A stretch of 64,000 bases of DNA, from contig JAEOTM010000041.1 in NCBI GenBank assembly GCA_016839815.1, positions 42,366 through 106,365 on the forward strand, given 5' to 3'. Source of the stretch: Candidatus Hodarchaeota archaeon. GTDB taxonomy: Archaea > Asgardarchaeota > Heimdallarchaeia > Hodarchaeales > Hodarchaeaceae. Of the stretch, positions 46,935 to 49,528 are shown piece by piece; the stretch's first letter is position 1; each line of letters begins with the position of its first letter. Position numbers and translations under genes: made by a program. The notes beneath the pieces were generated by a model, which made no database searches, had not been told where the DNA came from, and saw only the letters and a program-made list of their open reading frames with translations.

Positions 46935-48104
46935 ATGGATTTGAAAACTCTAGTGATGGAATTTGGTACAAATGAGATACGAATTGGGTTTGTAGACGAT
47001 CAACAACCTCAGATAGTGATACCAGCACTTATTGAGTCAACAAAAAGTATTGATTTTTGCCGAAACGAAGCTACAATAGACAAATGGAACTTTCAACTCA
47101 AATATCCTGTAATAGCGCGAAATATTGTACACTGGGATTCACTAGCTGAAATTTTAACACGGGTTTTTGAAGATGAGCTTAATTTAAAGGTTGAAAACTG
47201 CCGCATTCTTCTTATCTGGCCATTTTTTATTCAAGTCGATTATTTCGATATTCTGGCAAAGTTATTCTTTGAGAAAATGAAAGTTGCTGGTTTAATTGTG
47301 ATATATGGAGAAATTCTAGCATTATATTATTTAAACCACCCCACAGGAGTAGTTATAGATATAGGGGAAGGATACACGAGTGTTGTACCAATTGTGAATA
47401 GACACGCAATTGAACATGCATACAGAAGGAGTGACATCTCTGGACGGAAGATAACTTCTTCAATGCAAAGGTTACTCAATCAAAAATATAGAGATATCCC
47501 CTTGAGTCTGAAGATTGTCCAAGAGATCAAAGAGAAATATTGTTATATCGCAGAGGATTATCTGAAAGAGACAATGCTGGTAGAGAAGCTTGAAACGAAA
47601 TTTGTAAGGAATCACAGACTGGATACTGACCGAACCATTTCTCTCCTCACAGAGCGATTCATGACACTTGAGTGCATTTTTACCCCTAGTTTAATCGGCC
47701 TTTCAGAATTGGGACTCCACGCGACACTCGTTCTATCGATCAATGCCTGTCCAACAGAAATCCAATCAACAATATCTAGTAACATTTTCTTAATAGGAGG
47801 GACTTCTCAAGTACCTGGTTTATCCCAACGACTCCACACAGAACTTATTGGAAATCCAATCACTGTACCTAAAAAGGGAGGGGAGACTAAACAATACCAA
47901 ATCCCTACTGACATCGAACTAAATATTACTATTCCTCCAAAACCTTCACTTTCAACATGGCTTGGTGGAGCTAAATTGGGTAGACTGGTAACATCAACTA
48001 AAACTCACAAGATTTGGATAACAAAAGAAGACTACCGACATGAAGGAATTAAGGTTTTTGAGAAAAATCTGTCTAATGTCTTCCAGCTAATTGCAGAGGA
48101 ATAG
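46935..48104 (+). CDS. Actin-related protein 1 (divergent; short D-loop)
   Basis: LKYP..IVHWD, TGVVIDIGEG, IKEKYCYIA, ERF..IFTPSLIG, LIGGTS..PGL..RL, TWLGG, WITKEDY. Confidence 0.92.
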   Translation: MDLKTLVMEFGTNEIRIGFVDDQQPQIVIPALIESTKSIDFCRNEATIDKWNFQLKYPVIARNIVHWDSLAEILTRVFEDELNLKVENCRILLIWPFFIQVDYFDILAKLFFEKMKVAGLIVIYGEILALYYLNHPTGVVIDIGEGYTSVVPIVNRHAIEHAYRRSDISGRKITSSMQRLLNQKYRDIPLSLKIVQEIKEKYCYIAEDYLKETMLVEKLETKFVRNHRLDTDRTISLLTERFMTLECIFTPSLIGLSELGLHATLVLSINACPTEIQSTISSNIFLIGGTSQVPGLSQRLHTELIGNPITVPKKGGETKQYQIPTDIELNITIPPKPSLSTWLGGAKLGRLVTSTKTHKIWITKEDYRHEGIKVFEKNLSNVFQLIAEE

Positions 48105-48157
48105 AATAACAAAGTGAAAGGATAATTAGAAAATGACTAAACTCCCCTGAAAAAAGA

Positions 48158-49528
48158 ATGAGAAAAATGGTGTATTTCGAAAAACCATCAAATGATAAAT
48201 CAAGATCAAACCCAATGCAGAGATATAATAATTTAATTTCCGAATGGGTGGAAAAGCATCGTTGGGACCTTCAAGTCATGAGTGGGAGAAATCAATTCCC
48301 TCCAAGACAAACAAAACTGCAAAATTGCCCTAAATGTGGAAAAAAGTTTACAGAAAACCATATTCAACAATGTCTTTATTATACAACCTATCAGGAACCT
48401 CTTCATAAACAAATAGCTGTAATCATTAACGGATCTTCTTTCTCGGTAAATGGATTTGTCGGGGAAAATGATTTTAGATCTATATTTCCCACGCTAGTAG
48501 GCCAAAGAACCGAGTCACCAATAATCCTTGAAGGGGAACCAACCATAGAATGGTATGTTGGGGCGGATGCAAATAACTTCCGAGGGTCACTTCAACAACA
48601 CAAACTAATCGAGAATGGACAGATTACGAATTGGGTAGCACTAGAAAAACTATGGGCATTTACATTTCATCAATCTTTCAAAGGATATCCACCTGATTAT
48701 CCTGTAATTTTATCAGAATTAGATACTAGTAACAAGAAAACGCGAGAGAAAATGATACAGACAATGTTTGAAATTTTTAATGTTCCAGCATTATACATTG
48801 AAAGACAAGCTGTATTAGCTCTCAAGGCCTTAGGGAAAGAAACAGGTCTTATTGTGGATTTAGGAAAAGATCAATGTCGTATAGTCCCCATTATAAAAGG
48901 AAGGATAATTGAAGAGAACCTAGGAGTAATGAATCTTGGAGGAGATGATGTTACAAATTATCTTCAGAGTCTACTCATTCCTCAAATTAATAAAGAATTC
49001 TGGTCAGATAGTTACCAATTGTATTCAACAATGAATGATATCAAGAAAAAATATTGCTTTATTGTACAACAACCGAAAGAAGAAAATTTAGATCCAAGTA
49101 TTATGAATAGCCCCCTAAAAAGAGTGGAAAACATCTTTTTACCGAATGGGGATTCAATTGCATTATTTGACGAACGATTTCTTGCTCCTGAGGTTTTATT
49201 CCAACCTGATCTCATCGAATGTTCTGAACCACCCTTACACAAGATGATTCTTTATACCATCGATCACTTTGAAGAGGATATTAAATCCATTTTCTATCGA
49301 AATATTATACTCTCGGGAGGTTCGTCACTGTTTCCAGGGTTGATAGAAAGAATTCAATTTGAACTAACCTCTCTATACCCTAATGAACATTTAAAAATAG
49401 TTGCGGAACCAGACCGACGTTTTTTGGCATGGAGAGGTGCATCAAAAATCACTCCTCAATTGTTCAAGTCCATCTGTATCCAGAAAAGTGAATATTTGAA
49501 TAATGGACCAAGGGTATACGATCTTTGA
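48158..49528 (+). CDS. Actin-related protein 2 (divergent; N-terminal C2HC Zn finger)
   Basis: IFPTLVG, YVGADA, IENGQITNW, REKMIQTMFEIFNVPALY..QAVLAL, ERFLAPEVLFQP, NIILSGGSSLFPG, AWRGAS. Confidence 0.93.
   Translation: MRKMVYFEKPSNDKSRSNPMQRYNNLISEWVEKHRWDLQVMSGRNQFPPRQTKLQNCPKCGKKFTENHIQQCLYYTTYQEPLHKQIAVIINGSSFSVNGFVGENDFRSIFPTLVGQRTESPIILEGEPTIEWYVGADANNFRGSLQQHKLIENGQITNWVALEKLWAFTFHQSFKGYPPDYPVILSELDTSNKKTREKMIQTMFEIFNVPALYIERQAVLALKALGKETGLIVDLGKDQCRIVPIIKGRIIEENLGVMNLGGDDVTNYLQSLLIPQINKEFWSDSYQLYSTMNDIKKKYCFIVQQPKEENLDPSIMNSPLKRVENIFLPNGDSIALFDERFLAPEVLFQPDLIECSEPPLHKMILYTIDHFEEDIKSIFYRNIILSGGSSLFPGLIERIQFELTSLYPNEHLKIVAEPDRRFLAWRGASKITPQLFKSICIQKSEYLNNGPRVYDL

Follow-up and report, generated by a model that had tools for sequence, protein, structure and literature searches.

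Lokiactin, the conventional actin of the Asgard archaea, is universal in the group, and lokiactin-based filaments have been studied in HC1, a cultured Hodarchaeales strain (bioRxiv 10.1101/2025.02.26.640444). Other Asgard actin homologues, the actin-related proteins (ARPs), are likewise divergent paralogues standing beside the conserved lokiactin. 'Ca. Lokiarchaeum ossiferum', for example, has three such non-lokiactin homologues, and the distribution of Asgard ARPs has been described as patchy, shaped by gains, losses and duplications, in a class that is unstudied (PMC9834061). In this work, we analyse two neighbouring genes, called here ARP1 and ARP2, in a stretch of 64,000 nucleotides (the window) from a Candidatus Hodarchaeota archaeon (GenBank assembly GCA_016839815.1, contig JAEOTM010000041.1, positions 42,366 to 106,365). 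Both proteins share the complete four-subdomain actin fold with lokiactin and conventional actin, and both are accessory genes, while lokiactin is not.

In actin, D11 and K18 bind the metal and the phosphate, the hydrolytic water is held in place by Q137 together with H161, and the glycines 15 and 158 let the backbone touch the phosphate. Arp2 and Arp3 keep Q137, H161 and ATP hydrolysis. To our knowledge, chromatin remodellers of the Arp7/Arp9 type are eukaryotic. An earlier inspection of the same DNA, made by eye and called the sequence-only reading below, had proposed that ARP1 and ARP2 are pseudo-ATPases with complementary losses that do not form filaments, one binding nucleotide and the other not, as in the Arp7/Arp9 heterodimer, or else a capping or nucleating pair.

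The results presented here show that ARP1 and ARP2 are inherited and behave as one genetic unit, and a two-gene unit of putatively non-hydrolysing actin-fold proteins is well supported by the comparison of the sequences. We lean somewhat towards the view that they constitute a lineage-restricted accessory module of highly divergent actin paralogues and, with less confidence, that these would act together as a unit that does not form F-actin. Such a unit may be a heterodimer, or may cap or nucleate filaments.

The two genes and the inserted block

The source genome (labelled G000, the window being its contig C66) is a 4.24-Mb Asgard metagenome-assembled genome, 89.5% complete and with ca 36% G+C. 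Three actin-fold genes were found in the whole genome, namely ARP1, ARP2 and a canonical lokiactin on contig C20 (440 bits). ARP1 is located at 46935..48104 and ARP2 at 48158..49528, both on the + strand, as are all features of the window given below, and with 53 nt between them. The two reading frames are unbroken (389 and 456 codons, coding for 389 and 456 aa), and their DNA has 36% G+C. Over the whole core, both proteins match the Pfam Actin profile (PF00022), which has a cut-off of 27 bits, ARP1 with 200 bits (E 6.5e-59) and ARP2 with 242 bits (E 1.3e-71).

The pair is found between two genes for four-cysteine proteins, small1 (46452..46847) and its paralogue small2 (49583..50026). In five same-genus loci, the order ThiPP enzyme, M20 peptidase, small1, small2, alpha/beta hydrolase is present in all five, and it extends to an ACT protein and a transmembrane protein in three of them. 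The proteins of the three closest loci are 69–93% identical to those of the source genome, and those of the two more distant ones 37–65%. In none of the five is there an actin gene between small1 and small2, which in these relatives adjoin each other in tandem. At the DNA level, the stop codon of small1 is followed by TAAGATTTTTGTCG in the relatives, while in the source genome the TGA of small1, ending at 46847, is followed by 2714 bp of extra sequence and then by TAAGATGATTTTTGTCGG from 49562. Both edges could be mapped to the base. The left one lies directly after the small1 stop, and at the right one the native sequence TAAGAT..TTTTTGTCG restarts at 49562. The inserted block (46848..49561, 2714 bp) contains nothing but ARP1, ARP2 and short non-coding flanks, with spacers of 87, 53 and 33 nt.

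Since the flanking genes are directly adjacent to each other in the five same-genus genomes, the ARP pair is a 2714-bp insertion, and small1 and small2 are not parts of the module. These comparisons show that the block entered the genome as a single 2.7-kb piece between two conserved tandem genes, and the flanking four-Cys genes should not be read as part of an 'ARP cassette'. A scan of the junctions revealed no target-site duplication, terminal inverted repeat, tRNA or integrase/recombinase. Searches of viral contigs and of a phage collection returned nothing, leaving a virus or plasmid origin without support, and scans for promoters and terminators gave matches at chance level only.

A word-index search retrieved one close relative for each ARP, both on a single Logan contig, L001 (run SRR34261177; a further contig, L002, is from SRR34261173). 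The homologues, ARP1h and ARP2h, are in the same order there, in an unrelated context between a gene for an 808-aa protein and CbiMNQO. The genome nearest to L001 is G011, which belongs to the same genus and has 76% nucleotide identity to it. On the upstream side, the homology between the two stops 14 bp past the 808-aa gene. It restarts ca 85 bp after ARP2h, and in G011 the CbiM region is on another contig. From the junction comparisons at both loci it follows that the source genome and L001 differ from their close kin by precisely the two ARP genes as a unit. Upstream of the genes, the two loci have no conserved non-coding element in common.

Both homologues are broken in L001. ARP1h has a 1-nt deletion in ...cagcttc/tgggtta... 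(5540-5560), which leads to a frameshift, and ARP2h has an in-frame TAA (6678-6680) at the position corresponding to actin K68. The frameshifted ARP1h product is encoded in contigs of two runs and the shortened ARP2h product on two contigs. Read-through by means of pyrrolysine or selenocysteine was also considered, and can be ruled out because the stop is a TAA and not a TAG or TGA, and because the break in ARP1h is a 1-nt frameshift. That both genes are broken together fits an interdependence of the two, as a single case.

The pair is very rare. An exhaustive HMMER search with ARP1 against 1.84 billion cluster representatives yielded one other member of the family, with 55% identity, all remaining matches being at 34% or less. 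Of the 400 Asgard species genomes searched, which represent 85 genera, the source genome alone has matches to ARP1 at E<=1e-60. It is also the only one of 83 Heimdallarchaeia genomes with side-by-side actin genes, and none of the 23 further genomes of its order has more than one actin. In the HMMER, Asgard and Heimdallarchaeia searches, no genome turned up with only one of the two ARPs. A search of genome contigs with ARP1 gave only a 26% identical Baldrarchaeum actin, a search of metagenome contigs with the two-sequence alignment gave nothing, and the two matches to a degenerate DNA pattern for VIDIGEGYT were due to chance, with no actin among them.

The pair is thus a rare accessory acquisition in one species and not part of an ancestral or core actin cytoskeleton. 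It is not to be read as a precursor of the eukaryotic Arp2/3 complex or of the nuclear ARPs, and its evolutionary reach is limited. What makes it of interest is a clean genetic definition: exactly two genes that move together, keep their order and decay together, with clefts that are under selection.

The nucleotide clefts

The residues were compared, with the numbering of alpha-actin, by aligning the proteins to solved actins with HMMER and, independently, by means of MAFFT. The five-residue set D11, K18, Q137, D154 and H161 is complete in the genome's own lokiactin and incomplete in both ARPs, the corresponding residues being E11, R18, G137, D154 and S161 in ARP1, and I11, V18, Q137, D154 and R161 in ARP2.

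In ARP1, the P1 loop EFGTNEIR (46959..46982) corresponds to actin residues 11–18, with the changes D11E, S14T, G15N and K18R (DFGTSVVR in the L001 orthologue). The P2 loop DIGEGYTS (47358..47381) is identical in L001. It keeps D154, G156 and G158, has E157 as a near match (D157E), and has S in place of H161. The acidic and basic P1 residues and the near-normal P2 loop noted by eye are accordingly present in both alignments. The equivalent of Gln137, which had been reported as missing, is indeed a glycine in the segment IYGEIL (47301..47318), and an arginine in L001. The adenosine pocket of ARP1 has Q305, V306 and S336.

In ARP2, the damage is distributed differently. The P1 loop IINGSSFSV (48422..48448) has the changes D11I, G15S and K18V (VNGSSLSL in L001), which confirms the loss of Asp11 and Lys18 described earlier, and the P2 loop DLGKDQCR (48857..48880), likewise called degenerate, carries D157K, G158D, V159Q and H161R (DLGTDQSR in L001). 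Q137 is retained in ERQAVL (48800..48817), as had been stated, and also in the L001 orthologue. The adenosine pocket is kept (K213, G301-G302-S303, L305, F306 and R336), and R177 is replaced by V. Formal alignment, which the sequence-only reading had itself named as a possible refutation, did not restore any of the altered residues, and its residue-level statements all hold. What it had not mentioned is that H161 is missing in both proteins, that ARP2 retains its adenosine-pocket residues, and the changes at R177 of ARP2 and in the pocket of ARP1.

We now turn to the conservation of these sites. Between the source genome and L001, 25 of the 33 cleft positions are identical in ARP1 and 26 of 33 in ARP2, compared to ca 52% elsewhere in the proteins (Fisher p 0.0065 and 0.0015, respectively), making the cleft the best-conserved part of each ARP. 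In a control comparison of lokiactin with a eukaryotic actin, 27 of the 33 positions are identical. Because the L001 orthologues share the pattern, the ATP-site features are old and conserved, and not the noise of one genome. The altered clefts are thus maintained rather than decaying, and since both would be under strong purifying selection, they can be expected to still do something.

Judging from these residues, ARP1 is probably a nucleotide binder with little or no hydrolysis, as its phosphate loops are close to normal while Q137 and H161 are missing. ARP2 is probably nucleotide-free, or binds a ligand in a different way, because D11 and K18 are lost and bulky or charged residues occupy the positions of G15 and G158. 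The pseudo-ATPase interpretation is to this extent supported: neither protein has the whole catalytic set of actin, and the altered sites are conserved in their only orthologues.

The description of the losses as complementary needs to be qualified. Q137 and H161 sit in the cleft of each protomer and act there, and H161 is gone from both proteins, so that the losses cannot amount to a mutual rescue, and trans-complementation is not supported. The alignments indicate that ARP1 and ARP2 are degenerate in different ways without completing each other, and the word is descriptive rather than mechanistic. It is also true, as had been pointed out, that neither protein ends in RKCF. This observation carries no meaning, however, because the organism's own lokiactin (G000:C20) ends in ...VIKRAI.

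Relationship to actins and other ARPs

Structural models of both proteins were obtained with AlphaFold2, with a predicted local distance difference test (pLDDT) of 91.4 and a predicted template modelling score of 0.90 for ARP1, and a pLDDT of 86.6 for ARP2. The models were compared to solved structures using VIA-align. For ARP1, the best structural match is actin (4pl7_A), with Z 40.9 and a root-mean-square deviation (rmsd) of 2.4 over 344 aligned residues, at 29% identity. ARP2 gives the same Z of 40.9 to this actin, with an rmsd of 1.8 over 344 residues and 36% identity. The Z values for ARP1 and ARP2 are 39.0 and 35.9 to Arp3 (1k8k_A), about 36 and about 33 to Arp4, 34.8 and 32.4 to Arp7 (5tgc_A), 31.4 and 29.2 to crenactin, and 28.9 and 26.7 to Arp9 (3wee_A). 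The best 50 Foldseek matches are all actins for each of the two proteins, and MreB, ParM, MamK and crenactin are also among the structural matches.

The sequences give the same picture. The top matches of ARP1 in the Protein Data Bank (PDB) are actins, and the top solved relative of ARP2 is 'HC1 actin' (9wc4, 253 bits), followed by actins. In fold and in sequence, the two proteins are thus nearest to conventional actin and lokiactin, and not to Arp2/3 or Arp7/9. They are, at the same time, highly divergent, with 27–38% identity to actins and lokiactins (31.7% for ARP1 and 37.8% for ARP2 to the genome's own lokiactin), compared to 53–60% between lokiactin and eukaryotic actins. ARP2 at least probably derives from a lokiactin of the Heimdall type, because HC1 actin is its best solved relative and because its less derived L001 orthologue is nearer to lokiactin (44% identity) than to a eukaryotic actin (37%).

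In a maximum-likelihood tree, each ARP is grouped with its own L001 orthologue at 100% support, on a long stem. Taken loosely, the class of Asgard ARPs comprises actin paralogues distinct from lokiactin in an Asgard genome, which describes ARP1 and ARP2 as well, the flanks of the pair being syntenic with Heimdallarchaeia genomes of the same genus. Based on the tree and on the search, in which only the L001 orthologue exceeds 34% identity, we consider them a new member of this class, and not the same family as the earlier ones. Two other Asgard ARPs, P0050 and P0051, also have zinc-binding modules, but these are zinc ribbons placed after the actin core, whereas ARP2 has an N-terminal knuckle, and the tree groups them with neither ARP1 nor ARP2. 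The present pair further differs from other Asgard ARPs by its adjacency and its joint mobility.

As a side observation, two proteins listed at NCBI as 'actin, cytoplasmic 2' of Candidatus Hodarchaeota archaeon (P0017 and P0023) cluster with the lokiactins in the tree, yet carry the loops DIGSSLMK and DMGES, with S and Q at positions 137 and 161, respectively. They are a further lineage of actins in this order-level group whose ATP site is degenerate.

The Arp2/3 complex is similar to the present system in that it likewise involves two different actin-fold proteins, which here are presumed to pair, and among the structural representatives Arp3 comes second for ARP1. Actin outscores Arp3 for both ARPs, however, so that the structural Z values show no orthology, and neither ARP has both Q137 and H161. 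The inserted block contains no ARPC subunits. An ARPC4-like open reading frame is present elsewhere in the genome (G000:C149:48740-49042; PF05856, 31.7 bits, over the cut-off). It is unlinked to the pair and core to the genus, being found in 20 of 21 same-genus genomes that do not have the ARP pair and have one actin each. As these carriers have only one actin, the partner of the ARPC4-like gene is not a pair of the Arp2/3 type. A search for ARPC2 gave no match anywhere, and is uninformative as it had no positive control.

The likeness to Arp7/Arp9 (3wee, 5tgc) drawn in the sequence-only reading was that of a non-polymerising pair with unequal nucleotide binding. The title of the 5tgc entry, 'Rtt102-Arp7/9 bound to ATP', is in line with such unequal binding, but a specific resemblance is not borne out by the structural scores given above, which are lower for Arp7 and Arp9 than for actin. 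The inserted block contains no gene for an HSA helix or an Rtt102-like helical partner.

Possible functions and alternative explanations

Compared to lokiactin and conventional actin, ARP1 lacks the D-loop but carries 17 inserted residues and an extended C-terminal helix. The deletion of about 10 residues seen by eye is confirmed, the D-loop region being 10–12 residues shorter in the formal alignments (12 columns relative to the own lokiactin and 10 relative to a eukaryotic actin). The remaining stump ESTKSID (47034..47054) has the same length in the L001 orthologue, and residues 33–47 of the model are of low confidence or disordered. The insertion that had been noticed towards the C-terminus is GNPITVPKKGGETKQYQ (47850..47900; residues 306–322), located in the subdomain-3 loop near actin residue 320 and also present in L001. 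It is modelled as a beta hairpin, with the strands 309–312 and 318–321 at high pLDDT.

ARP2 differs from lokiactin and conventional actin by an 84-residue N-terminal extension (residues 1–84, 48158..48409) with a helix block, NPMxRY..WDLQxMSGR, and a C2HC knuckle. The extension is 34% identical to that of the L001 orthologue in two blocks (E 2e-23), the helix block being shared. In the model, there is a helix at residues 19–41, while the rest has low confidence and the knuckle is poorly defined. The putative zinc knuckle C57-x2-C60-x7-H68-x3-C72 (48326..48373) has all four ligand residues conserved in L001 (CSKCGEEATDDHINQC). Nothing significant was found for the extension in Pfam, where the top match is Rad50_zn_hook with E 0.026, below the cut-off, and the ESM Atlas gave no usable match. 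The D-loop of ARP2, RTESPIILEGEPTIEW (48506..48553), aligns without loss and is thus of full length, in agreement with the previous description.

With no D-loop and with a hairpin on the subdomain-3 loop, ARP1 would be unable to form the D-loop contact and is unlikely to make the canonical longitudinal contacts of F-actin, and it could plausibly bind filament ends or monomers. In ARP2, the C2HC extension could serve as a targeting element. As to the two together, it is conceivable, at lower confidence, that they act jointly, either on lokiactin, of which the cell has one, or next to it. A shared role on lokiactin, for example in end binding, nucleation or sequestration, would be the most economical guess. 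The earlier suggestion that the pair does not form F-actin is in this way supported as far as ARP1 is concerned. A prediction of the ARP1–ARP2 complex gave an ipSAE of 0.00 in two runs in which the controls were not folded, and it therefore weighs neither for nor against binding.

A number of results weigh against a functional joint module, and it is important to consider them together. Just two loci are known, and since one is broken, the module is dispensable. In relative-rate tests with the own lokiactin as outgroup, the genes of the source genome were found to evolve faster than those of L001, both for ARP1 (Tajima 44 vs 25, p 0.02) and for ARP2 (48 vs 22, p 0.002). The terminal branches are also longer, 0.82 vs 0.12 for ARP1 and 0.74 vs 0.33 for ARP2, so that the intact copies have the longer branches and the broken ones the shorter. 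This acceleration could reflect a relaxed constraint, or it may be an adjustment after transfer into a new host. Finally, the tree, in which ARP1 and ARP2 stand apart and not as sisters, has a weak backbone that does not fix the branching point of either.

Another option is that the ARPs build a polymer of their own, either a homo-filament or an alternating co-filament, with little or no turnover, which would be a static cytoskeletal or segregation filament and not a regulator of lokiactin. Many prokaryotic actin-fold proteins do polymerise with very different D-loops and contacts. In the 'hydrophobic plug' region of ARP1, PSLIGLSELGL (47685..47717) is identical in the L001 orthologue and 12 of 13 plug positions are conserved, which suggests a conserved protein–protein surface, and the D-loop of ARP2 is hydrophobic (PIIL). 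Against such a polymer stand the missing D-loop of ARP1 and the insert near actin residue 320, and the fact that no adaptor, centromere-like or membrane-anchor gene is found in the block. The positions corresponding to F-actin contacts are, furthermore, among the least conserved between the orthologues (30/76, p 0.003, and 28/86, p 7e-6). This last argument is weak, because lokiactin and a eukaryotic actin show a similar deficit (36/88 vs 199/368), and we have dropped contact conservation as evidence on polymerisation. All in all, an independent polymer seems unlikely to us.

The genes could also be neighbours by history only, descended from an ancient tandem duplication and moving as a block, while the two proteins work independently. 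ARP1 and ARP2 are only 25% identical to each other and differ in architecture, the N-terminal extension being present in ARP2 alone, and an approximately unbiased (AU) test does not reject a single clade of the two (p 0.265), which leaves a tandem-duplication origin possible. On the other hand, order and adjacency are kept at ca 53% protein identity in two unrelated contexts, L001 has lost both genes at once, none of the genomes searched has one of them alone, and their rates are equal. Between the source genome and L001, the number of nonsynonymous substitutions per site (dN) is 0.35 and 0.36 for the two ARPs, compared to 0.27–0.29 for CbiM and CbiO, while the synonymous counterpart (dS) is saturated. 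The protein identities are 52–53% for the ARPs and 46–67% for background proteins. Independent action of the two is on this basis decidedly improbable.

A more specific and more far-reaching version of a joint function can also be formulated. According to this, a horizontally mobile and independently evolved ARP1–ARP2 heterodimer would template or cap lokiactin by means of the D-loop-less face of ARP1 and the D-loop of ARP2, placed by the C2HC extension. Such a detailed arrangement is a long shot. If true, it would be an archaeal functional analogue of the Arp2/3 complex or of the Arp11 pointed-end cap, arisen outside the eukaryotic ARP radiation.

That the pair is a functionless passenger in the source genome, heading towards pseudogenes as in L001, would account for its sporadic distribution, the two broken L001 copies and the accelerated evolution, but is very doubtful in view of the intact frames, of cleft residues as conserved as between working actins, and of a dN far below the saturated dS, which argues for purifying selection on both genes over most of their history.

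A module of two proteins acting together is thus the reading that we prefer, with the reservations above. It offers a small and tractable system for work with lokiactin, and a timely one, since the lokiactin of the cultured Hodarchaeales strain has been solved (PDB 9wc4).

Flanking genes

The 808-aa protein encoded upstream of the pair in L001 (1978-4404) has no Pfam match on record. Members of its protein family, which is multi-copy and sometimes in tandem, occur in 16 of the 21 same-genus genomes and in a single genome from another family. Paralogues include G002:C36:12403-17691 and the three copies in G011.

The four-Cys family to which small1 and small2 belong likewise has no match in Pfam. 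Small2 has homologues with 46–85% identity, and the nearest include some under the names Hodarchaeales and Heimdallarchaeota B3_Heim. Of 21 same-genus genomes, 18 have the family, almost always as a directly adjacent tandem pair, while it was absent from all 19 other Heimdallarchaeia genomes searched. The source genome has a third copy at G000:C189:637-1002. It is thus a conserved genus-level family, independent of the ARPs.

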